Of a stretch of DNA of 64,000 bases, positions 7,696 to 57,230 are shown piece after piece. The DNA lies in the NCBI GenBank assembly GCA_963668695.2, contig CAXXLQ010000004.1, positions 3,840,001 to 3,904,000 on the forward strand. Direction: 5' to 3'. A program made the position numbers and the translations under genes. Positions within the stretch are counted from its first letter, which is position 1; each line of letters starts with the position of its first letter. The notes beneath the pieces are model-generated. The model made no database searches, was not told the DNA's origin, and saw only the letters and a program-made list of their open reading frames with translations. Origin of the DNA: Vicinamibacteria bacterium (GTDB taxonomy: Bacteria; Acidobacteriota; Vicinamibacteria; Marinacidobacterales; Marinacidobacteraceae).

Positions 7696-10247
7696 TCAGG
7701 GCTCGCCCGCGACCGTGGTTTCGATCTCTGCGGGGACCCCGCCCTTCATCTGGAAGGCCGGGCTCGTCGCCACCCCCAGGATGAACGCTGACATCCGGTA
7801 GTCCGAAGCCTCCGCCTGCCGGACGATCTCCCGGATCAGCGGCTGATCGAAATACTCCACCCGCCGGCCCAGCGCGTACGCCATCAGGTTCTCCGTGAAG
7901 GTTCGAAGCAGCGGCGTCGGACGCTTCAGCAGCGCCTCCCGCAGGTCCCCGATGTTCTGGATCGGGGTCCCGTCGTAGAACTCACCCGAAGCGTCAATCG
8001 GCTGGCCCGCGTCCTTCACCCGCACTCTGCCCGTCACGTCGAACTGCTCCAGCGCCAACCCGATCGGGTCCATCATCCGGTGGCACGAACGGCACGCCGG
8101 GTTGTCCCGGTGGATCTCCAGCCGTTCACGCGCGGTCAACTCCCGGCCGTTCTCCGACGCTGCCGTCGCGTCCAGATCCGGAACGTCCGGCGGCGGTGGC
8201 GGCGGCGGACTGCCCAGCAGAACCTCCATCACCCACTTCCCACGAAGCACCGCCGACGTCCGATACGGATGGGACGTCAGCGTCAGCATGCTCCCGTGGG
8301 CGAAGATCCCACGCCGGTTCGGGTCCTGATACGACACCATCCGGTGCTCCGGACCGGCAATCCCCTCCATCCCGTAGTGCTTCGCGAGGCGCTCGTTCAC
8401 GAACGTGTAGTCCGCGGTGAACAGGTCGAAAACGCTCCTGTCCTCCGTCACCAGGTGCTGGAAGAACCGCTCCGTCTCCTCCACCATCGCCGTCTTCAAC
8501 TGCTGGTGGAAGTCCGGATACAACCGAACGTTCGGGTTGATCTTCTCCAGATCCTGCAGCCGGAACCACTGATACGCGAACCGCTTCGCCAGCGCTTCCG
8601 AGCGCGGGTCCGCGAGCATCCGACGAACCTGGGTCTCGAACGCCGCAGGATCCGACAACTGCCCCGCCTCGGCCGCATCGAGCAGCTCGTAGTCGGGGAT
8701 CGTCCCCCACAGGAAGAACGACAGGCGCGACGCCAGGTCGGTATCCGTCAGCCGGTACCCGAACTCCGCCTCCCGCGGGTCCAGCGGCTCCTCGATCCGG
8801 AACACGAAGTTCGGGCTCGCGAGGATGCCCTCCACTCCCATCCGGATCCCTTCTTCGAAGCCGACCGTCTCGGCCCCCACGTCGTAGAGCAACATCAGCG
8901 CCGCCCGACTTTCGTCGTCGAGACTCCGGCGATAGGCCAGCCGGCCCAACCGCGAAAGGATCTCCTCGGCGCACGGCCGTGCTTCGTCCGCTGCCAGCGG
9001 GCGGCAGGCGAAGATCGCCTTTCGGCTCGGCGTCTCCGACACCCCCGTGGTGTCGAACGGTCCCCGAACCAGAATGTCCCGCAGATGGGGAAGGCTGTGG
9101 ATCCCGTAGGTGAGCGCGATGTTGGTGCTCGCCAGCGACCATTCGTGCGGCGAGATCAGATCCAGCGTCGCGCCGTCAAACTGGCGCAGGAACGCAGCGG
9201 CCACCGTCCTGGGACCGGCCTTGATGAAGAGGGGCTCCGTGATCATCGTCGCCCCGTTGGGATCCGAGGTGTGCATCCACGGGTCGATGGAGAGGAGCGC
9301 GACCCGCTCTCCGTCGATCGAGATCTCGAGCTGTTCCGGGTTCTCCTCGGAGTTCAACGCTCCGGCGGCGGTGCCGACGACAGGGCCGCACACTTCGTGG
9401 TGCAGCGAAACGCGGAAGACGTAGTTCCCGTCCGCGGCAAAGGTGTGATCCACTGCGATCCCGCCGCGGGTGCCGTACGGGGCTCCCTCGACCTGAACCC
9501 GCTGCGAAGCCCAACGGGAAACGAAGTAACTGGTCTCGGCCGGTGCGGCGTCGGGGTCCCCTACGGCCAACCGGCTGATCTCGCCCGCCGCGCGCAGATA
9601 GGAGTCCATGAGCGTGGCCGACAGCAACTGGACATCCGCGATGTTGTCGAAGTTCGCGCTGATCGTGTCCTGCGGCAGATACTCGGCGGCATCCACGGCG
9701 AGCGCCAGGAGATCCCGGATGGCCGCCGTGTACTCCGCCCGGTTGAGCCGCTGGAAAGAACGGCGTCCCGGATTCGGTTTCGCCTCCGCGCTCGCGTCAA
9801 GCTGGGTTTCGAGCGACCCGGCGACCTCGGCGAGCACCTCCTCTCCGGGGCGCCGGGCCCCCGGCGGCGGCATCATGCCGAGCCGCAGCTTCGAGACCAT
9901 CTTTTCCGCGAGGGCGGCATCTTCCGGCGCGTTCCCGGCGTCGAAACCGGAGAGCGTCATGTTCCCGGTCTTCATGCGGTCGTTGTGGCAGACATGCAGT
10001 AGGTCCGCAGCATCCGGTTGTGGGCGGCCGCGTTTTCGGGGGACACCGCCACAACGGCGCGCTCCGTCGCTGACGGCTCCCAGGACCGAACGGTGGCGAC
10101 CGTCGGCCCGGAAGCGGTGGGCTCCGATCCTTCCAGCCGGGCCAGCCGGGCTTCAAGCCCGGGCGCCGCCGCCGCGACGGAAGACGCGAGCAGGCCGGCG
10201 AAGAGAACCGGAATCAGCGAAACCGCTTCCAGCCTGGATGTCCCCAT
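7696..10247 (-). CDS. DUF1592-family protein (PSD/PSCyt domains, c-type heme motifs), copy 1; apparent 1-nt frameshift at ~9993
   Basis: RLNRAEY, LASRLSFFLW, RGKWV, CRSCH..MDPIG; N-terminal ORF 9972-10247 joins if one base is restored in CMVCH, as in the paralog at 16115-16129. Confidence 0.85.
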
Positions 10248-30007: not shown

Positions 30008-30711
30008 TAGTAGCCTGTGGATAGAGTGGCGTGAGCACCGAGACCGGCGAGGCCCAGTTCTCCCGGTGGGGCCAGTTCTCCCGGTGGGGGCCCGGCTGAC
30101 AAGGCGCGCGAGGGAGGAGCCCCCACCGGGAGAACTGGCCCGAGGGTATTCCGACCGAAGCGTAACGATGAGCAAAGCGAAGCGGAGTGGTTCAGCCGGG
30201 ATGCATCGCCGGTCGCTTCCGGAGCGGGGCGCAAGCACCGCGGAGACCCCGGAGCGAGAGGGATGGGGGACGGGGACACCCGGCTCCGATCCCTCTTGGC
30301 TCGGGCTTCCGGAGCGGGGCGCGAGCACCGCGGAGACCCCGGAGCGGAAGGGACGGGGGGCGGGGTCACCCGACCACCATCCCTCTTGGCTCGGGCTTCC
30401 GGAGCGGGGCGCGAGCACCGCGGAGACCCCGGAGCGGAAGGGACGGGGGGCGGGGTCACCCGACCACCATCCCTTCTGGCTCGGGCTTCCGGAGCGGGGC
30501 GCGAGCACCGCGGAGACCCCGGAGCGGAAGGGATGGGGGACGGGGACACCCGGCCCCCATCTCTCTTGGCTCGGGCTTCCGGAGCGGGGCTCGGGCTTCC
30601 GGAGCGGGGCGCAAGCACCGCGGAGACCCCGGAGCGAGAGGGACGGGGGACGGGTCCACCCGGCCCCCATCCCTCTTGACTCGGGAATGCCGCGTGACTT
30701 TGTCCACAGGC
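30008..30711. mobile_element. MITE-like element expanded by five tandem 90-bp units, with three micro-inserts
   Basis: Ends tagcctgtgga / tccacaggc; units start at 30216, 30306, 30396, 30486 and 30596. Confidence 0.8.
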
Positions 30712-41406: not shown

Positions 41407-41644
41407 ACAGCCTGTGGTGAAACCCGGGTGAGCGCCGAGGCCGGTGAGGCCCAGTTCTCCCGGTGGGGCCAGTTCTCCCGGTGGGGGCCCGGCTGACAAG
41501 GCGCGTGAGGGAGGAGCCCCCACCGGGAGAACTGGCCCGGGTGTATTCCGACCGAAACGCAACGCAGAACGGAGCGAAGCGGAGTGGTTCAGCCGGGATG
41601 GATCGCCGGGCGAACGCCGTCTGGGTTTCATCACAGGCTGTTAA
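41405..41644. mobile_element. MITE-like element, full length, three micro-inserts; shares a TTAA junction with the previous element
   Basis: taacagcctgtggtgaaaccc ... gggtttcatcacaggctgttaa. Confidence 0.85.
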
Positions 41645-44620: not shown

Positions 44621-45280
44621 GTGGACGGCACCGACAACGCCGCCAGTTCTCCCGGTGGGGGCCTTCAGACCGGCATCGCCCCGCACCGCGGGGCGAACTT
44701 CGCAGCCGTTTCCTTCGACGTGGACGGCACCCTCTACGCGGACGGCTTTCTGCGGGCCCGGATCGCTCTCGAAGCCATCCGCCGCCTGAATCCGAGTTCC
44801 CTCCGGGATCTCTACCGTTTCGATAAACGCGCCGTTGCCGCCCGCGCCGCCGGGGGAGCACTCGACCCTTCCTGGGCTTCCACGATTCCCATCCGGCTCG
44901 AAGCGGAGGCTCGCCTGCTGCTCCCGGTCATCCGGCGCCTGGGGCCCCGGGCCGGTGCGGCCGATCTCCTGACCCGCCTCCGGCCCCGCACCCTGATCGC
45001 CGTCTCGGACTTCGACGCGGAGGCCAAGCTGGAGGCGCTCGGCCTCCGCCATCACTTCGACCACACCTACGCCGCCGAGCGGTACGGCGCCCTCAAGCCC
45101 GACCCTTTGGTCTTCCGGGCCGCGCTCGCGGATCTCGGAATTGCTCCCTCCACCCTGCTGCATGTCGGAGACCGCCCGGACACCGACGGCCTCGCCGCCC
45201 GTGCGGCCGGCTGCCGCGCCCTCATCCTGGGCACCGACTTCGCCTCCTTTCGCGGACTCGGGGACCTGCTCGCCCCCTGA
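44621..45280 (+). CDS. HAD family hydrolase (start uncertain)
   Basis: FDVDGTLY motif I, KPDP, HVGDRPDTD motif IV. Confidence 0.78.
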   Translation: MDGTDNAASSPGGGLQTGIAPHRGANFAAVSFDVDGTLYADGFLRARIALEAIRRLNPSSLRDLYRFDKRAVAARAAGGALDPSWASTIPIRLEAEARLLLPVIRRLGPRAGAADLLTRLRPRTLIAVSDFDAEAKLEALGLRHHFDHTYAAERYGALKPDPLVFRAALADLGIAPSTLLHVGDRPDTDGLAARAAGCRALILGTDFASFRGLGDLLAP

Positions 45281-45507
45281 ATCCGCAGCGGAGGTCGTCC
45301 GCTTGGTCCTTCCGGGCGGTGGTCCGCGACGAAACGTATGATCCGCTGATCGAGACGACGGTAGATGCGCTGGGAAGCGAACCGGAAAGGTTCCTTCAGA
45401 CCGGCATCGGGTAGCTCCTCAGCGACCTGTCAAGAATGCACGCCGAGCAAGCAGCCGCGCTCGTGGAACGAGCACTACGAAAAACAGCCTCCGGGGAGGG
45501 GACGTCC

Positions 45508-46651
45508 ATGAAGATCGAGCGCCTGGGGTCAACAGTTCTGGTGGCCTTCGGACTTGCGCTGCTGTCCGCCTGCGCGGACGAGAGTCCGGGTGGCAGGATG
45601 GAGTCGGCGCCGGCGGGGCCGGTGGCCAAGGGCGGCGACGACCGGACCGGCGAGTACGACGCCGTACCCGGCTGGTGGAAGCCCGCGCCGGGACCATGGG
45701 GAGCCCTGGGTCTGGGGACAGGTCTCGGGCGTGGCGGTCGACACCCCGGACCGGGTCATCGTCGGTATCTGGGGCGACCGGGACGCCGAGGGGCGCGAGC
45801 GCGAGGGAAGCACCAACTACGTTGTCGCCGTGGACCGGGACGGCAACATCACCGAGAACTGGTCCCAGTGGGACTCGATCTTCAACAAGCCTCATCAGCT
45901 CTACATCAGCCCCTACGACCCCGAGCGCCACGTGTGGATCGTGGAGCGCGGCGGCGGCAAGAACGTCAACATGCAGATCCTCAAGTTCTCGAACGACGGG
46001 AGCGAGCTGGTGATGCGGCTCGTCGATCCGGATCACCCCACCACCCGGGCGGAGGCGCGCGCCAACCCGCACCCGGGCCCGTACGAGTACGGCGACCCCG
46101 CGGTGATGGCGTTCCTGCCGAGCGGTGACTTTCTGGTGGGCGATGGCTACTGGCACTCGCGCATCATCAAGTACGACGCCGAGGGCGAGTATCTGATGGA
46201 GTGGGGCGAACTCGGGAGCGGGCCGGGCCAGTTCGACCTGGTGCACGGGCTCGCGGTGGACCGGAACCGCCGCGTCTACGTGGGCGACCGCGCCAACAAC
46301 CGCATCCAGATCTTCACCGAGGACGGCGAGTACATCGACGAGTGGCCCGACGTCTCCGACCCCGTCGGCGTCTTCATCGACGAGAGCGATGCCGTCTGGG
46401 TGGTCTCGGCGATCCTGAACCGCATCCTCAAGTTCAACTTGGACGGCGAACTCCAGTACCACCTGGGCGCCTACGGGGGCACGCGGGGCGGCTTCCCGGG
46501 CGGTCTGTCGCGGCCGCATCAGATCGATGTGGACGAGGAGGGCAGCCTCTACATCGCGAGCTGGGACGGGGGCTGGATGGACAAGTTCATTCCCAAGCCG
46601 GACGCGGATCCGAGCAAGCTGGTGGGGAGGAAGCTGGTTCTGGAGAACTAG
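45508..46651 (+). CDS. NHL-repeat PAL-like lipoprotein; apparent +1 frameshift at ~45691
   Basis: LSAC lipobox; WWKPAP continues as DHGEPW in another frame if one G is removed; DGYWHSRI, DRANNRIQ motifs. Confidence 0.8.
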
Positions 46652-46718
46652 CCGGCAACCCGATGCTGATTCCGCTCGCTGGCTGTTCCTGGGGAGCCCA
46701 ACACCCTGGAGTACCGTT

Positions 46719-47755
46719 ATGAGTCGCCGAACATCGATCGCAGTGCTGGCCCTCGGGCTCACGCTGCTTTGGCCCGGATCACGCCTCGCCGCCCAGATCC
46801 CAGGCCTCCTGCTGAACGAGGCCGGTGAGGAGATCGTCGCCACCTTCTCGATCGTCGCGCGCGATCCAGGCACGGGAGAGCTGGGAGTCGCCGTGCAGTC
46901 GCGGGCGTTTCGCGCCGGAGCCATCGTTTCGTACGCCAAGGCGGGGGTCGGGGCGATCGCGACCCAGGCGGCGGCCAACCAGACCTACGGGCCGCGCGGG
47001 CTGGAACTCCTGGAGCTGGGGCTCTCGCCGGACGAGGTGGTCGAGCACCTGACCGGCTCGGATCCGGGGCGTGACCGCCGCCAGCTCGCCGTCATCGACG
47101 ACCAGGGCCGGGTCCGGGCCTACACGGGATCGGCAACCAGCGCCTGGGCGGGACACCTCGAGGGCGAGAACTTCTCGGCTCAGGGCAACATCCTGGCTGG
47201 GGAAGCGGTGGTGCAGGCGATGGCGGAGGCGTTCGAGGCGTCCAGGGTCCGCTCGCACTTCGTCTGATGGACGCCCTCGATGCCGGCCAGGCCGCCGGGG
47301 GCGACGCGCGCGGCAAGCAGGCTGGCGGGGTTTTGGTGGTGAAGCCGATCGGCAACTCCGGCCGGACCACCCGGACCAGCGACCGCTGGGTGGACGTGCG
47401 CGTGGACGACCATGCCGAGCCGTTCAAGGAGCTGCGCCGCCTGGTCAACATGTCGGTCTCGCGAATTCACGCGAGCGAAGCCCGGACGCTGGCCGCGGAG
47501 GGCCGCTTCGACGAAGCCGTGGCGGCGCAGCAGGAAGCGATCGCGATCGTGCCCGGGGAGGATCAGCTCATCTACGGGCTGGCCCGGCTGTACGCCCGCG
47601 CGGGCGACGCCGCGGGCGCGGTGGCGACGCTCAAGCAAGCCATCGAAATCGACGCGCGCTGGCGAGGGCTGGCGGCGTCACAGGCCGACTTCGACAACAT
47701 CCGCGATAACGCGGAGTTCCAGAAACTGCTCAACTCCAAAGGACCCCTGTCATGA
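46719..47755 (+). CDS. DUF1028 (Ntn-hydrolase-like) protein with C-terminal TPR; apparent frameshift at ~47243
   Basis: TFSIVARD...GVAVQS, ATQA, QGNILAG; continues GPLALRLMDALDAGQAAGGDARGKQ in the next frame. Confidence 0.82.
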
Positions 47756-48248
47756 AATATCGCCGAATCCCGCTGCTGTTCGCCCTGGCGCTGCTCCCGG
47801 GTTGCGCTGCCGACCCGGCCCCCCCGGAGGCGACTGCCCCGGAGTTGCCCAGAATGCCCCAGTTGCCCCGGAGCGGAGCTACATCAACTCCCGCTCGGCA
47901 CAAGACCCCGATGTGCCGCCCTTCAGCGGCGGCGTGATGGTGGGCGACACCTTCTACGTTGCGGGAACGATCGGGCTGGGCCCCGACCAGACGGTACCCG
48001 AAACCGCCCAGGAGGAGGCTCGCATCGTCCTCACCAACGTGCAAAACACACTGGAGGCGGCCGGGCTGACCATGGACGACCTGGTGTCGGTTCAGGTCTA
48101 CTCCTCGGACGTCGCGGATTACGACGCCTTCAACGAGGTCTATCGCACGTTCTTCACCCAGGAGTATCCGGCGAGGGCATATCTGGGCTCGGGCACGTTG
48201 CTCTTCGAAGCGCGGTTCGAGGTGCTGGGGTTCGCGGTCAAGCGATAG
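47752..48248 (+). CDS. RidA/YjgF family protein with lipoprotein signal; apparent frameshift at ~47820-47870
   Basis: LPGC lipobox in one frame; PFSGGV..GDTFYVAG, FNEVY...PARA in the next. Confidence 0.78.
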
Positions 48249-48318
48249 GGCCGCTCGGAACACAGTCTCAGATTCGCGGTGCGCGTTCGCCCGCCTCCGG
48301 CGGACGATGCCGACCGGA

Positions 48319-48409
48319 CTCCCCCGCGCGCCTTGTCAGCCGGGCGCCTCGCCCCCACCGGGAGAACTGGCCGCTCTCGGCGCTCACCCGGGTTCCACCA
48401 CCGGCTGTT
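48319..48409. mobile_element. MITE-like right-end fragment with micro-insert; supplies the GH3 stop codon
   Basis: gcgccttgtcagccggg...caccaccggctgtt. Confidence 0.75.
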
Positions 48410-49998
48410 CCCCCTCTTCCCAAAGACGCGGGTAGAAGGGCTGGAACTTGAACTGGGAGTCAACGTGGGCTGAGCCTCCACCGGAGGCGCGCGGAAGGAA
48501 GTCCGAGAGCTCAAGGGTTGAGCAGCGGACTCCACCGAGCCGGCGGCTCGCACGCTTGGCGCGGTATTCGAGGTTCTGATTCCCGAGAAGTTCATCGAGC
48601 CGCTCGGGGAGGCCCTCGGGGAGGCCCTCGGGCAGGCCGCCGGGCTCGCGCGACGCCGGGCGGACCGCCGCCAGGTGGTAGCAGGGAAGCGCATCTCCTC
48701 GTGGGTTCGAAGGAAAGAGCGCGAGCCAGAAACGCTTCCGGAGTCCCGGGAACTCGCAGTCCAGCGCCGAGAACGCGCGCTCAACGTGCCCGGCGGTGAG
48801 CTTTTCCCCGGTGAAGGACCAACCCAGGCCTCGCCGGCGGACAAAACGGAGATCCGGATGTCCGCCGACGAAGCGCGCGACCCGAAAAAGATCCCCGGTC
48901 GCGTAGCGCCGGAGGCCGAAACGGTGGCTCACCACCATTTCGTACGTCTCCCCCGGCCGCAGGTCGCTGGCGCCCAAGAGGCTTGCCTCGGATCCCAGGC
49001 TTGCCTCGGATCCCGGCTCGAGGAACTCGTAGAAGACGCCGGGTGCGGCCGGTAGGAACGCCGTCTCTCGCTCCCGGTAGTCGGGAACGGTCTCGATCGT
49101 CTCGGTGGACATCGAATACATCGGCTCCCGGGTGAAACGCGATGCGGGGAGGCGGCGGTCGAGCCGCTGCAGAAACGGACCCACCGCGCCTCCGGTCCAG
49201 CAGACGTAGGTCGTGACGCCGGGCGCCCAGGCCGTGATCGGCAGTGGCTCGGGACTTTCCGCCACCCGGAGGAGCCGCTTCCGCGATCCCATCGAAGCGA
49301 GCTTCCGGAGGAGCCGCCAGACGGACGGGTGCAGGCGCTCAGGTTCCCGGACGACCCGCCGAACGAGCGCGGAGGCGCTGCTCCCAATCGGCGTCGAGCT
49401 CTTCGAAGAACCCGCTCAGCGTGGAGGGGTTCGTTGCGTAGAGGACTCCCGGATTCGACAAGGTGAGGACCAGGAGACGAAGCGCGGCCGCGCCGTACTG
49501 CTCTTTCAGATCCTTAAGCGCCGGATCCGACTGCGCCCGGTAGGGCGCCTGCAGCAGGATGAACCACGGAGGCGCGCGGCGCTCGCTGACGAGCAACCAG
49601 CTCAGCGAGCGATCCGGATCGAGAGCGCCGAAGACGTAGAGGCTGGGACGCCGGATCCGCCGGCGCGCGACGAGGCGAAGCATCCCGTCCACGAAAACGC
49701 CGCGGGTCGCCGAGAGCCGCTGCCGCGGGTACGCGACGCGCTTGGGCTCGCCCGAGGTGCCGGAGGTGAGCGCCACGGGGGCCCCCGCCCCGTCACCCGA
49801 ATCCGCGGAAGGCAGTTCCCGGGTGAGCGGCGTCGCGGGGGTGATTCCGAAGCGCCGCCGCAGCCGCCGTTCCCGGAGCGGATGGATCGTCAGACGTACG
49901 CGGTGGCGAAGGACGGCCGCCCGCCCCGCCAGTCGCAGGACAAGCGCGATCGCTGCGCGTCCGAGGTCATTCGCGAGGCCCCGGGCCTCGCGGCTCAT
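48384..49998 (-). CDS. GH3-family adenylating enzyme; apparent frameshift at ~49384
   Basis: LTSGTSGEPK, MYSMSTE, YEMVVS..FGLRRYATGD and GEK match the GH3 motifs; the two ORFs join if one G of a GGG run is removed. Confidence 0.75.
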
Positions 49999-50024
49999 CG
50001 GGGTCGAACTCGGGGCCGAACTTG

Positions 50025-50256
50025 GGCGCCGGTGGACAGAGCCAGGCGGCCCAGTTCTCCCGGTGGGGGCTCGGCCGGCGATCCATCCCGGCTGAGCGCT
50101 GCGCCCCACTTCGCTCGTCGTTGCGCATCGGTCGAAATAACCCGGGCCAGTTCTCCCGGTGGGGGCTCCTCCCTCGCGCGCCTCGTCAGCCGGGCGCCTC
50201 GCCCCCACCGGGAGAACTGGCCGGCCTCGGCGCTCACCTTGCTCTGACCACAGGAA
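50025..50256. mobile_element. Degenerate MITE-like copy with three micro-inserts
   Basis: Core retained; inserts at 50048, 50145 and 50201. Confidence 0.8.
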
Positions 50257-51532
50257 CCCAGGGCTGTCCGGACCGGACGAACGGCGGATCAACCAGGGGG
50301 GCCACAAAGGCGGCAGCGATGAAGTCAATGTCTTCCTCGCGGAGGAGGGCCGGGTCCCAGGTGATCGTGACCACGGTCTGGTCGGCCTGGGACATGGCGG
50401 CGAAGTAGAGCGGATGCTGCCGGTGGAGGCAGGCGATCACCTCCATGCCCGAAACGTCCTGGAGCACCGGCTCGTCGTCACCGGGCCAGTGCTCGAGGTG
50501 CGTAAACCCGGCGGTGCCGAAGTCGGCCCACGGCCGGTAGATCCATCGGCGGAGCAGGGGGGCCGCGACAGGAAACAGCGAAGCGGGAACCGGCAGAGAG
50601 GGAACTGCCCACTCTCCCGTCCGTTTCTTCCGGTACACCATCCGGCGAACCGAGCGGCAGCGCTCCAGAAAGGCCCGGCTCTTCACGACAGAAACCGGCT
50701 CGCGGTGAACCCGGATCCGCGACGCACCGTTCCCGAAGCCTCGGAGGCGATCCTCCCGGACGTTCATCGGCACCCAAAGCCCGATTCGATTCCCGGACAC
50801 CCCCTGGTGCTCGTTCCAGGCCGCCAGCGCGTCGAGCGCCGCCGCCAGCAGACAATCGTTCCACCGGAATCCGCCGACCGTCTGGGACAGGGAGGCGAGA
50901 GGCTCGCGGGGCACGGACACCGTACGCCAGCAGCGGCTCGCCGAAGCAGGCCCGGGACGCGTCGCGAGCGTGGCCGAGGTGCCGGAATCCGGGTTGCGAC
51001 GGGCGCCCTTTGGCGCCTCCATCAGTTTGAGCGACCCGGTCTGGGGGCGCGAGGGCATGGTGTCCAGGCCGCGCGCCATGCGTAGCTGCCGCTGCACGAA
51101 CAGCAGCGTGCCGATCAGGTCCGAGGCGGCATGGTGTACCTGAGTGACGAGACTCCAGGAGGGAGGGTCTCCGGTGCCGAGCAGCATTTGCCTGAGCGGT
51201 GGCCCCTCCTCGAGGGGAAAGGGAATCTCGAGAAACTCCTGGATCCGGGCGACGCGCTCCCCCTCCGGAAAAACCCGGATCGCCAGGGATGGCGAAGCGC
51301 CGGGCCGCGGCTCCCACATCGGTACATCGAACGGCGGCCGGCAGAGCCGGCTCGTGGACACCGGGAACAACTCCCCAGCGCCCTGAGTCCCGGCGTACAG
51401 CGGCCCGAAGTCCGTCACCGCATGCGACGACCGGCCCAGATCGAGCACCAGGGCGTAGTCCAGGGGCCGCTCCGGCGAGTCCGCGAGCAGACACGCCAGG
51501 TCGGGCGTGGCGAGCGGGATGCGTCCGGTCAG
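50234..51532 (-). CDS. Condensation-domain / CoA-dependent acyltransferase-like protein (HHxxxD)
   Basis: FPLEEGPPLR, QVHHAASD, WNDCLLAA, PMNVR...GFGN motifs; frame open upstream to a CTG overlapping the desaturase stop (CTGA). Confidence 0.68.
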   Translation of the reverse strand: MTGRIPLATPDLACLLADSPERPLDYALVLDLGRSSHAVTDFGPLYAGTQGAGELFPVSTSRLCRPPFDVPMWEPRPGASPSLAIRVFPEGERVARIQEFLEIPFPLEEGPPLRQMLLGTGDPPSWSLVTQVHHAASDLIGTLLFVQRQLRMARGLDTMPSRPQTGSLKLMEAPKGARRNPDSGTSATLATRPGPASASRCWRTVSVPREPLASLSQTVGGFRWNDCLLAAALDALAAWNEHQGVSGNRIGLWVPMNVREDRLRGFGNGASRIRVHREPVSVVKSRAFLERCRSVRRMVYRKKRTGEWAVPSLPVPASLFPVAAPLLRRWIYRPWADFGTAGFTHLEHWPGDDEPVLQDVSGMEVIACLHRQHPLYFAAMSQADQTVVTITWDPALLREEDIDFIAAAFVAPLVDPPFVRSGQPWVPVVRAR

Positions 51533-52404
51533 ACGGCTTCCGGCGGCGCTTCGCGCCAGATGTCGCGGCGCGGAATCCGGCGCCGCTCGGGGTCGCGCTC
51601 GACAAGCTGGTGAAGCTCGACCCAGGCGAGATGCGGCCTCAGGTGGTGTTCTCGGTGCATGGACAGTCCGGAGGAAAACCAGTACGCCAATCGGCCGAAG
51701 TAGTTGTGGGAGCGCGCCGCGGGATCACCGGTGGAATAGCCCTCATGGGTGAGATGGGCGAAAGGAATCCAGAGCACGAGCGACACGAGTACGCAGACCG
51801 GCAGGGTCCCCGACACCACCCGCCAAGGACCCACCAGCATGGCCACCAGAAGATAACAGGCCGCGATGGCCAGATAGTTCACCGCCAGATCGCGTCCATG
51901 GCCCGGAGGCAGTCCGCCGCGGCGGCGAATCCAGAAGAACCATTGGTGCGGCATCGCCACCGCCCGGAAGGGAAGCTGCCACTTATGGGGAGTGTCCAGG
52001 AACAGGTCCGGATCCTTCCCCGGCTCGTTGGTGTGGCGGTGGTGCTGGAGATGGGTGCCCCGGAAATTCGTGAACGGAACGAGACAGGGCAAAAGAGCCA
52101 GCCGGCCCCAGAAGGCATTGGTTTTCCGCGACCGGCCGAGGAGGCCGTGGACGCCTTCGTGGGCCATTACGGTGCCGATGAAGGCCAGCCAGCTCCGGAA
52201 CAGGATGTCCGCCGTCCAACCCCACCAGGTGGTGGGAACCACCAGCAACCCGGCGAAGCTCAACGCCAGGAGCGACACGATCACCGTGCGGCTGAGCAGG
52301 TGGACCCGGCGGACCGGCCAGCGACGAAGTCCGGCCGGAACGGAGGGAGAATGGACACCGGAAACCTCTTCGGACCGGTTTCGATTCATGGCCACCTGGT
52401 ACAC
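51529..52404 (-). CDS. Membrane fatty-acid desaturase family protein
   Basis: Histidine boxes HEGVH, HLQHH and HREHH, with TM segments. Confidence 0.9.
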   Translation of the reverse strand: MYQVAMNRNRSEEVSGVHSPSVPAGLRRWPVRRVHLLSRTVIVSLLALSFAGLLVVPTTWWGWTADILFRSWLAFIGTVMAHEGVHGLLGRSRKTNAFWGRLALLPCLVPFTNFRGTHLQHHRHTNEPGKDPDLFLDTPHKWQLPFRAVAMPHQWFFWIRRRGGLPPGHGRDLAVNYLAIAACYLLVAMLVGPWRVVSGTLPVCVLVSLVLWIPFAHLTHEGYSTGDPAARSHNYFGRLAYWFSSGLSMHREHHLRPHLAWVELHQLVERDPERRRIPRRDIWREAPPEAV

Positions 52405-52421
52405 CCCTTCCGATCTTGACT

Positions 52422-52627
52422 CTAGCAGCCTGTGGACAAGGTCACGCGGCGTTCGGCTGGCGATGCATCCCGGCTGAACCGCGCCTCTGTGAGGCGCTCA
52501 TCGTTGCGCTTCGGTCGAAATACACCAGGTATTCCTCCCGCGCGCGCCTTGTCAGCCGGGCGCCTCGCCCCCACTGGGAGAACTGGCCAGCCTCGGCGCT
52601 CACGCCACTTTGTCCACAGGCTACTAG
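52422..52627. mobile_element. MITE-like element, full length, CTAG at both ends, one micro-insert
   Basis: ctagcagcctgtggacaa ... ttgtccacaggctactag. Confidence 0.85.
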
Positions 52628-52707
52628 CATTCGCCATACCTCGAGACGGACGGCCGGCAGCCTGCGCGCCAGCGGCCGAATTCCTGGAAGAAGGAGGGAA
52701 GCGCTCC

Positions 52708-55700
52708 ATGCCCCCAGCACACTTTGACATCGGCTCCGCACCCGTGACCGGCGGGCGCCGGAAACGCGCGGCGTTGCTCGCCGCCGCCCTCCTGCTGGCC
52801 GCCGGTTTCGCCGCCGGCCAAACCGCGGATCCGGATACCGGGCCGGTTGCCACCGCGATCGAGGGACTGAAGCTCCGCGGGATCGGCCCCGCCCTGATGG
52901 GAGGCCGCATCGCCGACATCGCCGTGCACCCGCAGCGGCGCTCCACCTGGTACGTGGTGGTGGGTTCCGGCGGGCTCTGGAAGACCGAAAACAGCGGCAC
53001 CACCTGGAAGCCGGTCTTCGACGAATACCCCTCCTACTCCATCGGCACCGTAGCCCTCGATCCTTCGAACCCGGAAGTCGTGTGGATCGGCACCGGAGAG
53101 AACGTGAGCGGACGCCACGTCGGCTGGGGCGACGGGGTGTATCGCAGCCGTAACGGCGGCGCCTCCTGGGAACAGGTGGGCCTCGCCGGCTCGCAGCACA
53201 TCGGCAAGATCCTGGTGGATCCGCGGGATGGGGACACCGTCCTGGTGGCCGCCGAGGGGCCGCTGTGGAACGGAGGGGGCGAACGCGGCGTGTACCGGAC
53301 CGAGGACGGCGGCGCCACCTGGACCCGCACGCTCGATCTCGGCCCCGACACCGGCGCGACCGATCTGGAGTTCGCTCCGGGCGACCCGGACACCGTCTAT
53401 GCCGCGGCCTACCAGCGCCGGCGCCACGTGTGGTCGTTCCTGGCCGGAGGACCCGGCTCCGGGATCCACAAGTCCGACGACGGCGGCCGGACGTTCCGAA
53501 AGATCACGAAGGGCCTGCCGAAGGGGGACGTCGGGAAGATCGGCCTCGCGGTGACCCCGGCGGATCCCGGGCTCGTCTACGCGACCATCGAGGCCGACGA
53601 GGAGGAACGCGGCTTCTACCGCTCCGGGGACCGGGGCGAGAGCTGGGAGCGGCGCAGTCCCTACGTGTCGGGAGGCACCGGGCCGCACTACTACCAGGAG
53701 ATCGAAGCGTCTCCGGCCGACCCGGACCTCGTGTACCAGATGGACGTCTTCTTCCACGTGACCCGGGACGGCGGCAAGACCTTCGACTACCTCGGCACCG
53801 GACGCGAAAAGCACAGCGACAACCACGCGATCTGGATCGATCCCGACGACCCCGGCCACCTGCTCGGCGGCACCGACTCGGGGCTTTACGAAACGTTCGA
53901 CGAGGGAGTGACCTGGCGGCACTTCCCGAACATGCCCGTCTCCCAGTTCTACAAGGTGGCGCTCAGTAACGCCGAACCCTTCTACGACCTCCTCGGGGGG
54001 GCGCAGGACCTCGGGTCGGTGCACGGTCCTTCGCGCACCCAGAACAGGGAAGGGGTCCGGAACCGCGACTGGTACGTGCCGCTCGGGGCGGACGGCTACG
54101 GCGTGCAGATCGATCCGCGCGACCCGAACATCCTCTATCTGATGACCCAGCAGGGGAATCTCTATCGCGCCGACCGGCGGAGCGAGGAGACGCTGCACAT
54201 CCAGCCGCTGGCCGCCCCCGGCGAACCACCGGAACGCTGGAACTGGGACTCCCCCATCCTGATCAGCCCGCACGACGCGGACCGGCTGTACTTCGGGTCG
54301 CAGCGAGTGTGGCGGAGTGAGAACCGGGGCCAGTCGTGGACCGCGGTCAGCGGGGACCTGACCACCGGCCGGAACCGCTACGAGCTCCCCTTCTACGACC
54401 GGATCTGGAGCGTGGACGCCCTGCACGACACGGCGGCCATGTCCCGCTACGCGACGCTGACCGCGATCTCCGAGTCGCCGGTGGCGGAGGGCGTGCTCTT
54501 TACCGGAAGCGACGACGGACTGGTCCACGTCAGCACCGACGGCGGGGCGAACTGGAGCCGGGCGGCGGCGCTTCCGGAACTCCCGGCCCTCGCCTTCGTC
54601 AACGACGTCGAGGCGTCCCAGCACGACCCGGACACCGTGTTCGTGGTGGCCGACAACCACAAGATGGGCGACTTCCGGACGTATCTGTTCCGCAGCCGGG
54701 ACCGCGGGGCGTCTTGGGAGTCCATCGCCGGGGACCTGCCCGACGGGACCATCGTCTGGGCCATCCAGCAGGATCACCGGGACCCGGACCTGCTGTTCCT
54801 GGCAGCCGAGTACGGGCTCCACGTCTCGTGGAACGGCGGGACGAACTGGGTGAAGCTGAAGGGCGCCCCGACGATTTCGTTCCGCGACGTGAAGGTGCAG
54901 CGGCGGGATGACGACCTGGTCGGCGCCACCTTCGGTCGGGGGTTTTACGTCCTGGACGACTACGCGCCGCTCCGGGCAATGGCCGCCGCGGTCCGCGCCG
55001 GCGAATCCACGCTCTTCCCGCTGCGCGACGCCTGGTGGTACGTGCCGTCGGTTCCGGCCCAGGCCCCGGGCCGTCCCACCCAGGGAAGCACCGCCTTCGT
55101 GGCGGACAACCCGCCGTTCGGCGCGGTGCTGACCTACTACCTCGCCGAGGACCTGAAGACGGCGAAGGAGGAGCGGCAGGCCGGCGAGAAGGAAGCGCGG
55201 GAGAGCGGCGCCGACATCCCCTTCCCCGGATTCGACACGCTCCGGATCGAGGAACTGGAAGAGGATCCCGCGGTGTTCGTGGTGATCCGGGACGCGAACG
55301 GAGCGCCGGTCCGGCGGGTCGCCGGATCCCCGAAGAAGGGCGTCCACCGGGTGGCCTGGGACCTCCGGGGCCCGGCGCCCAACCCGATCACCTTCCAGGA
55401 GCCGGGGTTCACCCCTCCCTGGGTGCGCCCGCCCCAGGGACCGCTCACGGCGCCGGGCGAGTACTCCGCGCAGCTCGTCGCGGTGACCCGTGACGGCGCC
55501 CGCAACCTCGGGGAACCGCAGCGCTTCCGGGTCAAGCCCGTGCCGAACCTCCCCGAGGGCACCGATCCGGCGGCGGTGGCCGCCTTCCAGCAGGAGACGG
55601 CCAGCCTGCTCCGAGCGATCCACGGGGCCGCGGCCGAGGCCGGCCGGGTCCGGGAGCGGATCCGCCACCTGCGGGCGGCCCTCAAGGAAACCCCCCAGGC

Positions 55701-56031
55701 GGACGAAGCGCTCTTCGGGCGGATGGACGCCGTCCTCAGGACGCTCTCGGACCTGGAAGTCCGGCTGAACGGCGACCCCGCCCGCGGTTCGCGGAACCAC
55801 CCGGCGGCGCCCTCCATCCGGGAGCGGGCCGGGGGCATCGCGGGCGGCCACTGGGACACCCGCCAGACGCCCACCGAGACCCAGCGCGAAAGCCTCCGCA
55901 TCGCGGCCGGGGAGTTCGAAGGACTGCGGGGTGAGTTGCGGTCGCTGGTCGACGAGGACCTGGCCGGGCTCGAAGCGGACCTCGAAGCCGCCGGGGCCCC
56001 CTGGACCCCGGGGAGGAAGATCCCGGGATAG
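52708..56031 (+). CDS. Secreted VPS10/BNR-repeat glycosyl hydrolase (GH74-like)
   Basis: IGPALMGGRIAD and many S/T.DGG.TW Asp-boxes; SD aaggagg upstream. Confidence 0.9.
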   Translation: MPPAHFDIGSAPVTGGRRKRAALLAAALLLAAGFAAGQTADPDTGPVATAIEGLKLRGIGPALMGGRIADIAVHPQRRSTWYVVVGSGGLWKTENSGTTWKPVFDEYPSYSIGTVALDPSNPEVVWIGTGENVSGRHVGWGDGVYRSRNGGASWEQVGLAGSQHIGKILVDPRDGDTVLVAAEGPLWNGGGERGVYRTEDGGATWTRTLDLGPDTGATDLEFAPGDPDTVYAAAYQRRRHVWSFLAGGPGSGIHKSDDGGRTFRKITKGLPKGDVGKIGLAVTPADPGLVYATIEADEEERGFYRSGDRGESWERRSPYVSGGTGPHYYQEIEASPADPDLVYQMDVFFHVTRDGGKTFDYLGTGREKHSDNHAIWIDPDDPGHLLGGTDSGLYETFDEGVTWRHFPNMPVSQFYKVALSNAEPFYDLLGGAQDLGSVHGPSRTQNREGVRNRDWYVPLGADGYGVQIDPRDPNILYLMTQQGNLYRADRRSEETLHIQPLAAPGEPPERWNWDSPILISPHDADRLYFGSQRVWRSENRGQSWTAVSGDLTTGRNRYELPFYDRIWSVDALHDTAAMSRYATLTAISESPVAEGVLFTGSDDGLVHVSTDGGANWSRAAALPELPALAFVNDVEASQHDPDTVFVVADNHKMGDFRTYLFRSRDRGASWESIAGDLPDGTIVWAIQQDHRDPDLLFLAAEYGLHVSWNGGTNWVKLKGAPTISFRDVKVQRRDDDLVGATFGRGFYVLDDYAPLRAMAAAVRAGESTLFPLRDAWWYVPSVPAQAPGRPTQGSTAFVADNPPFGAVLTYYLAEDLKTAKEERQAGEKEARESGADIPFPGFDTLRIEELEEDPAVFVVIRDANGAPVRRVAGSPKKGVHRVAWDLRGPAPNPITFQEPGFTPPWVRPPQGPLTAPGEYSAQLVAVTRDGARNLGEPQRFRVKPVPNLPEGTDPAAVAAFQQETASLLRAIHGAAAEAGRVRERIRHLRAALKETPQADEALFGRMDAVLRTLSDLEVRLNGDPARGSRNHPAAPSIRERAGGIAGGHWDTRQTPTETQRESLRIAAGEFEGLRGELRSLVDEDLAGLEADLEAAGAPWTPGRKIPG

Positions 56032-57230
56032 GAACTCCACGCTCTGGCGGGGTCTGTTGCGGGGACTCCACGCTGGAGCGGTGGAACTCCACGCGGCACG
56101 CTACTCCACGCTGGAGCGGGGTCTGCGGGCGCGCTACTCCACGCTGGAGCGGGAACTCCACGCTGGAGCGGGATCTGTTGGCGGGAACTCCACGCTGGAG
56201 CCGCCGAACTCCACGCTGTAGCGGGATCTGTCGGCGGGAACTCCACGCTGGAGCCGCCGAACTCCACGCTGTAGCGGGATCTGTTGGCGGGAACTCCACG
56301 CTGGAGCCGCCGAACTCCACGCTGTGGCGGGGTCTGCTGGTGGGAACTCCACGCTGGAGCCGCCGAACTCCACGCAGCGGGATCTGCCGGCGGGAACTCC
56401 ACGCTGGAGCCGCCGAACTCCACGCTGGAGCGGGTCTGTTGGCGGGAACTCCACGCTGGAGCCGCCGAACTCCACGCTGGAGCGGGATCTGTTGGCGGGA
56501 ACTCCACGCTGGAGCCGCCGAACTCCACGCTGGAGCGGGTCTGTTGGCGGGAACTCCACGCTGGAGCCGCCGAACTCCACGCTGGAGCGGGATCTGTTGG
56601 CGGGAACTCCACGCTGGAGCCGCCGAACTCCACGCTGGAGCGGGATCTGTTGGCGGGAACTCCACGCTGGAGCCGCCGAACTCCACGCTGGAGCGGGATC
56701 TGTTGGCGGGAACTCCACGCTGGAGCCGCCGAACTCCACGCTGGAGCAGGATCTGTTGGCGGGAACTCCACGCTGGAGCCGCCGAACTCCACGCTGGAGC
56801 GGGGTCTGTTGGCGGGAACTCCACGCTGGAGCCGCCGAACTCCACGCTGGAGCGGGATCTGTTGGCGGGAACTCCACGCTGGAGCCGCCGAACTCCACGC
56901 TGGAGCGGGGTCTGCTGGCGGGAACTCCACGCTGGAGCCGCCGAACTCCACGCTGGAGCGGGGTCTGTTGGCGGGAACTCCACGCTGGAGCCGCCGAACT
57001 CCACGCTGGAGCAGGATCTGTTGGCGGGAACTCCACGCTGGAGCCGCCGAACTCCACGCTGGAGCGGGGCCGGCGGACGGAACTCCACGCTGGAGGGGGT
57101 TCGGCGGATGGGGACTCCACGCTGGAGGAGGTGGAACTCCACGCTGGAGCCGCGAAGCTCCACGCTGAAGCGGGTTCGGCGGGCGGGAACTCCACGCTGG
57201 AGCCGCGAAGCTCCACGCTGGAGGAGGTTC
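56031..57230. repeat. ~1.2-kb satellite: 17 regular ~53-bp units with degenerate flanks (~45 copies of gaactccacgctggag)
   Basis: Unit ggaactccacgctggagccgccgaactccacgctggagcgggatctgttggcg; linkers nearly invariant. Confidence 0.95.

Follow-up and report, generated by a model that had tools for sequence, protein, structure and literature searches.

What could a desaturase-like membrane enzyme, a free-standing HHxxxD protein and a GH3 adenylating enzyme make together, when their genes lie side by side and no gene for a carrier protein is near them? This question is raised by a locus in the genome of a Vicinamibacteria bacterium. The DNA that we analysed (hereafter the window) comprises 64,000 nucleotides, C4:3840001-3904000, of a four-contig, 4.1-Mb bin with 91.7% completeness and 9.3% contamination. 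We found that the three genes, named DES, AT and GH3 here, recur in the same order across distant lineages and are intact in a second copy of the locus. We tentatively propose that the trio is a carrier-protein-free lipid pathway operon, wherein amide formation, chain oxidation and O-acylation are combined. The product would most likely be an undescribed fatty-acyl amino lipid, made by a route related to the GH3-dependent ornithine-lipid pathway.

The three genes are arranged head to tail on the minus strand, DES first, then AT and then GH3. A preliminary description of this locus, made from the sequence alone, had reported three co-oriented genes, and both their positions and their content proved to be correct. 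The features are as follows.

52404..51529, minus strand: DES, 291 amino acids from GTG; FA_desaturase family, predicted membrane di-iron oxygenase
51532..50234, minus strand: AT, 432 amino acids from CTG; predicted free-standing condensation-fold HHxxxD enzyme with no Pfam model
51529..51532, minus strand: CTGA junction, where the DES stop TGA overlaps CTG, the only conserved candidate start of AT
49998..48384, minus strand: GH3 acyl-acid amido synthetase gene, split by one extra base; the intact form has 537 amino acids

Conservation of the trio

We collected 57 loci from public genome contigs, all of which are metagenome-assembled genomes. DES, AT and GH3 follow one another on one strand in 47 of the 57 loci, with median gaps between the matched parts of 41 and 39 nt, confirming that the trio is co-localised in other genomes. 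Another five loci are cut by contig ends and match the trio order as far as they reach, and five deviate (L071, L080, L084, L095 and L102). L071 retains AT with a remnant of DES, and L095 has no DES and only a fragment of GH3; the other three are weighed below together with the proposed pathway.

AT was found in all 15 other genomes of the genus (full trio in 13, a trio cut by a contig end in one and AT only in one), in 5 of 12 genomes from the family's other genera and in 22 of 55 genomes of the order (including G000, the genome of the window), all of them GTDB species genomes. A 400-genome sample of the rest of the phylum gave three strong AT matches beyond G000. On the Acidobacteriota side, the loci belong to Candidatus Marinacidobacterium, Vicinamibacteria, Bryobacterales, Terriglobia and Pyrinomonadaceae; the other taxa are Gemmatimonadaceae, Latescibacterota, Myxococcota and one bin labelled 'Deltaproteobacteria'. 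Across the four phylum labels, the lowest identity to the window is 29% for AT, 38% for GH3 and 44% for DES. A quick AT tree (49 rows from Acidobacteriota, three from Myxococcota, two from Gemmatimonadota and one from Latescibacterota) groups largely by taxon, with the two loci lacking GH3 on long branches.

The doubts that the preliminary description had itself raised about the cluster (no synteny elsewhere, unconfirmed folds, genuine decay) are all answered, here and in the following sections, in favour of a live, conserved operon. Its family and fold assignments are backed by profiles for all three genes, and for AT and GH3 by fold comparison as well.

GH3 is predicted to share the fold of plant GH3 enzymes

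The intact GH3 protein (P0046), encoded by the second copy of the locus (copy B, see below), matches GH3_M (PF23571) with an E value of 2.6e-14 and 53.5 bits (cut-off 23.6), and its GH3 N and GH3_C scores (13.2 and 12 bits) are both under 23.6. The orthologue of L128 reaches 32.7 bits for GH3 N. When a profile of 19 orthologues was searched against the PDB, all ten matches were plant GH3 enzymes, including JAR1 at 1.1e-13 over positions 200-510 of 525. In a Foldseek search with the AlphaFold2 model (pLDDT 86.9), ranks 1-28 were all occupied by plant GH3 (E 1.6e-20 to 6e-14), and PaaK-type ligases followed at about 1e-10. The model thus points to a GH3 fold and not to another ANL adenylating fold.

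The nucleotide-binding motifs of GH3 enzymes are present as TSGTSGEPK, YSMSTE and GLRRYATGD. Residues T78-S79-G80..K86, M293-S295-S297-T298-E299 and G361-R364-Y365-T367-D369 are invariant in the 19 orthologues, and YSMSTE is found in 46 of 51. Motifs I and III were judged by these alignment invariants, the regular expressions being too strict (34 and 25 of the 51 orthologues gave no match). The GH3 of the trio is the only one in this genome.

AT represents an unnamed condensation-fold family

The active-site motif of AT reads VHHAASD, with H133, H134 and D138 numbered from the CTG at 51532. Among 18 sequences, H133 and D138 are invariant and H134 is conserved in at least 90%. HHxxxD is present in 52 of 55 AT orthologues, in which the residue after the aspartate is mostly leucine, with glycine in nine, and a second motif, FGN[GA]xSR[IL]R, is found in all 55. 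No Pfam family matched AT at E<=1, hence none of PF00668, PF03007 and PF06974, and the score against TIGR02946 (WS/DGAT) was 28.8 bits, under the cut-off of 309.95. The best sequence match of the AT profile in the PDB is the Marinobacter WS/DGAT 6chj (E 2.9e-4).

The AlphaFold2 model, built with 18 family members, has a pLDDT of 86.6 and a pTM of 0.89. Foldseek gave 322 matches in the PDB (E<=0.001), of which the listed ones comprise condensation (C), epimerisation (E) and cyclisation (Cy) domains of non-ribosomal peptide synthetases (NRPS), WS/DGAT and TRI3. The nearest solved structure is AzeD (8s6l), with a Foldseek E value of 5.8e-21 and a VIA-align Z score of 33.8, a root-mean-square deviation of 3.6 over 399 residues and 15% identity. 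The next VIA-align score is that of an NRPS elongation module of pyochelin synthetase (Z 30.1); the CDA starter C domain (C1) scores 29.8, the RzmA starter C domain 28.2, WS/DGAT 27.3 and PapA5 25.0. Overall, the model aligns with C, Cy, E, WS/DGAT and PapA5 structures at Z 24-34 over about 380 residues, and with NRPS Cy and C domains at 28-30. AT is thereby predicted to adopt the two-lobed, V-shaped fold of C domains. WS/DGAT and PapA5 are CoA (coenzyme A)-dependent O-acyltransferases of the same superfamily as the condensation enzymes.

The AT family consists of 45 clusters at 90% identity, none of which carries a Pfam domain or an informative name. A search of 1.84 billion representatives with the AT profile gave 126 matches at E<=1e-30; multi-domain giants of 4650 and 6179 amino acids first appear at E of about 1e-29, through the HHxxxD region only (among the best 150 matches listed). 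Judged from these sequence comparisons, the family appears to form a group of its own outside Pfam Condensation and WS_DGAT. In the ESM Atlas, AT falls with unnamed clusters and with one cluster carrying PF00668 on 36% of its members, which we treat as leads only.

DES is a putative membrane di-iron oxygenase

DES matches Pfam FA_desaturase (PF00487) with E 2.8e-23 and 83.4 bits (cut-off 29.7). An alignment of 18 orthologues shows the His boxes HExxHG, HxxHH and HRxHH together with invariant H220 and H233, and HxxHH is kept in all 49 DES orthologues. Three strongly hydrophobic segments (peaks 2.1-2.3) predict that DES is an integral membrane protein, and the orthologues suggest that its start lies a few codons downstream of the GTG. 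The DES profile gave no PDB match at E<=0.1.

The best NCBIfam similarities of DES are to the CrtR hydroxylase (44 bits), the CrtW ketolase (32.6) and the DesB Delta10 desaturase (18.1), all of them far below the respective cut-offs (475 for CrtR and 350 for CrtW). DES therefore appears nearer to the hydroxylase and ketolase models than to the desaturase models, all these matches being weak.

Two candidate DES-AT fusions from the representative search, P0153 (560 amino acids) and P0068 (502 amino acids), were rejected, as they contain no desaturase domain. The window has a G+C content of about 69%, which gives rise to many long spurious frames, and we take the open frames of 718-725 amino acids in G425 and G427 for alternative frames that happen to be open in such high-GC DNA.

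DES and AT share a CTGA junction

The preliminary description had noted a four-nucleotide overlap, CTGA, between the first two genes. This holds: the DES stop codon (51531-51529) shares bases with the CTG at 51532-51530. In the AT frame, no ATG, GTG or TTG precedes the GTG at 51448, the first canonical start, and initiation at 51448 would remove 28 residues (LTGRIPLATPDLACLLADSPERPLDYAL) that align with the N-termini of homologues. CTGA is present in 17 of 17 same-genus junctions (one each from the window and the second copy, and those of 15 genus genomes) and likewise in the 13 loci of this genus that a broader junction survey included, 7 of which have no ATG, GTG or TTG between the upstream stop and the conserved motif.

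The homologous place is occupied by ATGA in seven distant loci (L094, L097, L101, L105, L107, L109 and L111), by GTGA in L098, and by TTGA followed by ATG in six Terriglobia loci. In total, 27 of the 49 junctions read have an ATGA, GTGA, TTGA or CTGA stop/start overlap at this place. Since such overlaps stand at the same place in distant orthologues, the 4-nt stop/start overlap is ancestral, and the CTG version has been kept in this genus. We conclude that DES and AT are translationally coupled via this overlap, and infer from the junction sequences that AT is initiated, or re-initiated, at CTG in this genus. A conserved CTG within a 4-nt stop/start overlap offers a clean natural case for studies of non-canonical re-initiation.

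Proposed pathway and alternative explanations

In the pathway that we tentatively favour, GH3 would use ATP to adenylate a free fatty or other lipophilic acid and couple the acid with an amine, most probably that of an amino acid, yielding an N-acyl amide, as OlsH does with ornithine. The membrane di-iron enzyme DES would then oxidise the acyl chain, hydroxylation being favoured over desaturation. Finally, AT would use its HHxxxD site to transfer another acyl group to the hydroxyl so formed, with acyl-CoA or acyl-ACP (acyl carrier protein) of primary metabolism as the donor, and the resulting ester would be an acyloxyacyl amino lipid. The absence of a carrier protein nearby, claimed in the preliminary description, was upheld: the two PP-binding matches of the genome are at 1.07 and 2.38 Mb, and the trio is at 3.89 Mb. 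We take the lipid context from the membrane nature of DES, the WS/DGAT sequence match of AT, its similarity to starter (lipo-initiation) C domains (Z 28-30), and the neighbours in two loci: L093 (Acidobacteriota) has a PlsC-type acyltransferase downstream of the trio (8685-10118, plus strand), and L097 (Latescibacterota) has a second FA_desaturase gene beyond the HAD gene (8601-9893, minus strand).

Several observations weigh against this pathway. The nearest solved structure to AT, AzeD (Z 33.8 versus 30.1 for the next), is a dehydratase, not an acyltransferase. Hydroxylase and desaturase are not separable by sequence, the similarities of DES to CrtR and CrtW being far under the cut-offs. GH3 scores only 15.7 bits against the OlsH model NF052613 (cut-off 620), over the C-terminal part, and nowhere in the genome does the OlsH model find a match at E<=0.01; ornithine or fatty-acid specificity is therefore not transferable from OlsH. 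The trio is also not always complete: L080 and L084 contain DES-AT without GH3, and L102 contains AT-GH3 with DES moved downstream to the other strand. Conversely, a GH3-profile search of the same phylum sample found G041 and G084 (both 95% complete), which have DES-GH3-HAD and no AT-family match in the genome. In both loci (L128, C7, 6164-9257, in G041; L121 in G084), GH3 comes immediately after DES and is overlapped by the HAD gene that comes next, and the genes lie behind a divergent GntR regulator. Such loci indicate that AT is not obligatory for the product of DES and GH3. Moreover, all 57 loci are metagenome bins, so that no lipid data can be matched to them.

Three other explanations accept the trio as functional. 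One reading, which corresponds to that of the preliminary description and which we consider unlikely, takes DES for a genuine desaturase, so that an unsaturated N-acyl amide or an N,O-diacyl head-group compound would be formed, with AT acylating the amine partner or a head-group hydroxyl and not a chain hydroxyl. Pfam does place DES in FA_desaturase, N-acylating starter C domains that use fatty acyl-CoA are structurally close to AT (CDA C1 29.8, RzmA 28.2), and the recurrent HAD hydrolase described below could, speculatively, free a hydroxyl or amine head group from a phosphate ester. However, two amide- or ester-forming enzymes would be redundant for one bond unless two acyl groups are attached, and DES scores best against the oxygen-inserting CrtR and CrtW, ahead of DesB, although all these scores are weak.

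The structural ranking of AT suggests another possibility, namely that AT is an AzeD-like dehydratase: the N-acyl amide would be hydroxylated and then lose water, giving a product of the enamide or dehydro-amino-acid type. Foldseek and VIA-align both rank AzeD first among the structures, the dehydrating C domain AmbE-CmodAA is at Foldseek rank 4, and AzeD is itself reported to be a free-standing C-family dehydratase of a secondary alcohol. Nevertheless, AzeD has PHxxxDG while AT orthologues keep both histidines (52 of 55), at an identity of 15%, and the rank of a fold is indecisive for chemistry since Z scores of 25-30 are reached by the canonical C domains that transfer acyl groups, by WS/DGAT and by PapA5. 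The use of a hydroxylase followed by a dehydratase would moreover be a detour to what a desaturase achieves in one step, and we regard this explanation as improbable.

There is a slim chance that the substrate is a non-fatty lipophilic acid, carotenoid-derived or aromatic, which would be oxidised, conjugated to an amino acid and acylated. The best NCBIfam matches of DES are indeed a carotenoid hydroxylase and a ketolase, and PDB titles name jasmonate, auxin, benzoates and isochorismate as acids that are conjugated by GH3 enzymes of plants. Yet the scores for CrtR (44 bits; cut-off 475) and CrtW (32.6 bits; cut-off 350) are low, and no carotenoid genes were seen in the flanks scanned. The flanking genes vary, which suggests that the trio is self-contained and reliant on a common cellular metabolite.

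With the amide, hydroxylation and O-acylation pathway, the trio might have evolved independently, as a fourth way to make acyloxyacyl (piggy-back) amino lipids or else a new lipid class. The branching hydroxyl would be put on the finished N-acyl amide by a di-iron hydroxylase, instead of coming from 3-hydroxy-acyl intermediates of fatty-acid synthesis, and a carrier-free NRPS-type condensation protein would esterify it. We hold this extension to be possible but rather doubtful. If this is true, several uncultured Acidobacteriota lineages, sponge-associated ones included, would make their amino lipids mainly in this way, and GH3 plus a stand-alone C protein could be a general two-enzyme logic for bacterial acyl amides.

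If the product is an amino lipid, with a role in membranes or signalling, the trio would provide a pathway for Vicinamibacteria, Bryobacterales and Pyrinomonadaceae, lineages for which most knowledge of lipids comes from a small number of cultures. A stand-alone condensation protein would also gain a role that is not part of NRPS chemistry, in a compact three-gene unit that is open to direct test by heterologous expression. In our view, the interest of the locus lies mainly in this directly testable unit and in the unnamed condensation-fold family, the theme of GH3-dependent acyl-amide lipids being already known.

The GH3 reading frame is intact in the second copy

In the window, GH3 is divided into two frames (49998..49339 and 49292..48384). 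C4:3783325-3913787, the last 130 kb of the 3.9-Mb contig, repeats C4:13629-148038 at 96.5-99.5% identity. The duplicated 130 kb are probably two strain haplotypes joined in one contig, which is consistent with the 9.3% contamination of the bin. Over 4.5 kb of the trio, the window copy and copy B are 98.5% identical; they differ by 68 substitutions and by just one indel, the additional G at window position 49380 (region about 49374-49380). Copy B encodes GH3 in an uninterrupted frame of 537 amino acids from the homologous ATG.

Logan contigs from three DNA runs of three studies omit one base at 49378/49379. The depth omitting the extra base is 22.8 of 22.8 in run X1, 7.78 of 7.78 in X14 and 149.3 of 312 in X5; judging from bin means, we tentatively attribute the excess depth of X5 at 49374-49380 (312 versus 149.3) to a short contig end that overlaps. 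Relative to copy B, four other single-base indels occur in the window copy within 16 kb. Two neighbouring genes, DUF1028-TPR (46527-47755) and NHL-repeat (45415-46651), each carry a disrupting single-base indel in the window copy alone; in copy B, each is one open frame (360 and 411 amino acids).

The frameshift noted in the preliminary description is thus present in the window sequence, but it does not stand as a sign of decay. The intact copy B, the three DNA runs and the two neighbours broken in the same manner together show that the cluster is not decayed, and the break in GH3 is a private allele or, more likely, a consensus error. That the trio is a decaying remnant in this genome, with a real frameshift and a dead pathway, is hardly credible: the extra base does stand in the window, and loss does occur in the genus (G429, L047/L071, keeps AT and a DES remnant without GH3), but the 98.5% identical copy B is intact, the contigs of X1, X14 and X5 omit the base, and the window-only indels with the two broken neighbours fit consensus errors in one haplotype of a long-read assembly.

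Neighbouring genes, repeats and expression

Two further features accompany the trio.

50140..50240, no strand assigned: palindromic repeat between AT and GH3, 22-bp stem; partial second copy near 50030-50100
44678..45280, plus strand: HAD-IA family hydrolase (Pfam HAD), convergent, 3.1 kb beyond GH3; loosely linked recurrent neighbour

A HAD-IA homologue is found within the 5-kb flanks of 32 of the 57 loci, mostly convergent and just past GH3. In L108 and L128, it is on the same strand, overlaps the end of GH3 and is part of the operon. The HAD-IA protein of the window is 45% identical to the HAD abutting GH3 in L076 and has no specific NCBIfam equivalog. The remaining flanking genes vary between lineages, and no alpha/beta-hydrolase was seen in the window flanks scanned. 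A large gene for a Sortilin/BNR-repeat protein (52432-56031, plus strand) is divergent from the operon, and a RidA/L-PSP gene (within 47412-48248, plus strand) is convergent on the end of GH3.

The AT-GH3 repeat is a 100-nt palindrome that has a stem of 22 bp and a short U-rich run behind it; its hairpin fold has a z score of -2.8. It belongs to an intergenic family of about 80-100 nt with inverted ends of 21-23 nt, represented by 790 BLAST pieces in the 4.1-Mb genome. Copies flank the trio at 48319-48388 and 52533-52603, and further copies in the window are at 339-411, 30070-30142 and 41467-41542. Read-depth spikes of 10^3-10^5 stand on the repeat in all runs compared. In same-genus relatives without the repeat, the AT-GH3 distance is 9-30 nt. 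An Rfam scan of 47500-53500 gave no match at E<=0.1, the repeat included; a promoter scan found no sigma-70-like site, and terminator-like sites numbered 5 versus 3.0 expected, results that we do not regard as informative.

Farther away, a tandem array at 56103-57223 contains 21.3 copies of a 53-nt unit with 90% matches, each unit carrying two copies of the palindrome-bearing word ACTCCACGCTGGAGC. The contig contains four more arrays that are similar, near 0.42, 2.09, 2.74 and 3.28 Mb, and the frames across the 53-nt array have no Pfam match.

In one metatranscriptome run, contigs cover DES (51463-51837 and 51847-52390) and the 3' end of AT (50242-50449). These contigs give a weak hint of expression, since such libraries can contain DNA. 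Apart from the repeats, no contig of the metatranscriptome run X17 covers GH3, and this absence of cover is not counted as evidence.

Comparison with known systems

The literature searched contained no description of this cassette, nor any mention of 'Marinacidobacterium'. For the membrane component, the known enzymes with the best NCBIfam similarity are CrtR and CrtW, which share the Pfam family and the three His boxes with DES. DES reaches about a tenth of their equivalog cut-offs, however, and the locus has no carotenoid context.

For AT, two kinds of stand-alone enzyme invite comparison. Like AT, WS/DGAT and PapA5 stand alone and carry HHxxxD, and they form esters on lipid hydroxyls with no need of a dedicated carrier domain; AT differs in being far below the TIGR02946 cut-off and in matching neither PF03007 nor PF06974. 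AzeD, the founding stand-alone C protein, resembles AT in its size of about 430 amino acids, its two-lobed condensation fold and its place as top structural match. AzeD carries PHxxxDG and dehydrates a secondary alcohol of an NRPS product (bioRxiv 10.64898/2026.07.17.738954), and a further likeness would be its action on a free rather than a carrier-bound substrate. In contrast, AT is 15% identical to AzeD, keeps the first histidine of HHxxxD, which is altered in many members of the AzeD group, and is never beside an NRPS in the loci read.

The closest functional parallel is the OlsH/OlsI(/OlsG) pathway of Singulisphaera acidiphila (J Biol Chem 2025, PMC12493201). The bacterial GH3-like enzyme OlsH converts a free fatty acid, with ATP and Mg2+, to N-acyl ornithine, and a separate alpha/beta-hydrolase O-acyltransferase, OlsI, adds a second, ester-bound fatty acid (PMC12493201). 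With OlsH, bacterial GH3 enzymes received an assigned function for the first time, in 2025. The remark in the preliminary description that bacterial GH3 function is poorly known is thus partly outdated by the characterisation of OlsH.

The trio shares with OlsH/OlsI a bacterial GH3-fold enzyme in a small operon, a separate second-step enzyme and the lack of a carrier protein. Its GH3 retains the three nucleotide-binding motifs described for OlsH and AtGH3.11 (PMC12493201), and by analogy a fatty acyl amide would be the natural reading of the first intermediate. There are also differences. The partner of the trio GH3 is predicted to have a condensation fold and not that of an alpha/beta-hydrolase such as OlsI; a putative membrane di-iron oxygenase is translationally coupled to this partner, and the OlsG methyltransferase is missing. 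An OlsB-type match (PF13444) was likewise not found in the 91.7%-complete genome. The main text of the OlsH paper mentions neither 'desaturase' nor 'condensation' (PMC12493201), and Vicinamibacteria, Bryobacterales and Pyrinomonadaceae are outside the orders listed with OlsH homologues in a 2026 review (PMC12971839).

Taken together, the failure of GH3 against the OlsH model and the different partners indicate that the trio follows an OlsH/OlsI-like logic, with an amide, a second acyl group and no carrier, and is not that pathway. It adds to OlsH a second, very divergent bacterial GH3 clade, which is tied to two different partners, one of them without a Pfam model.

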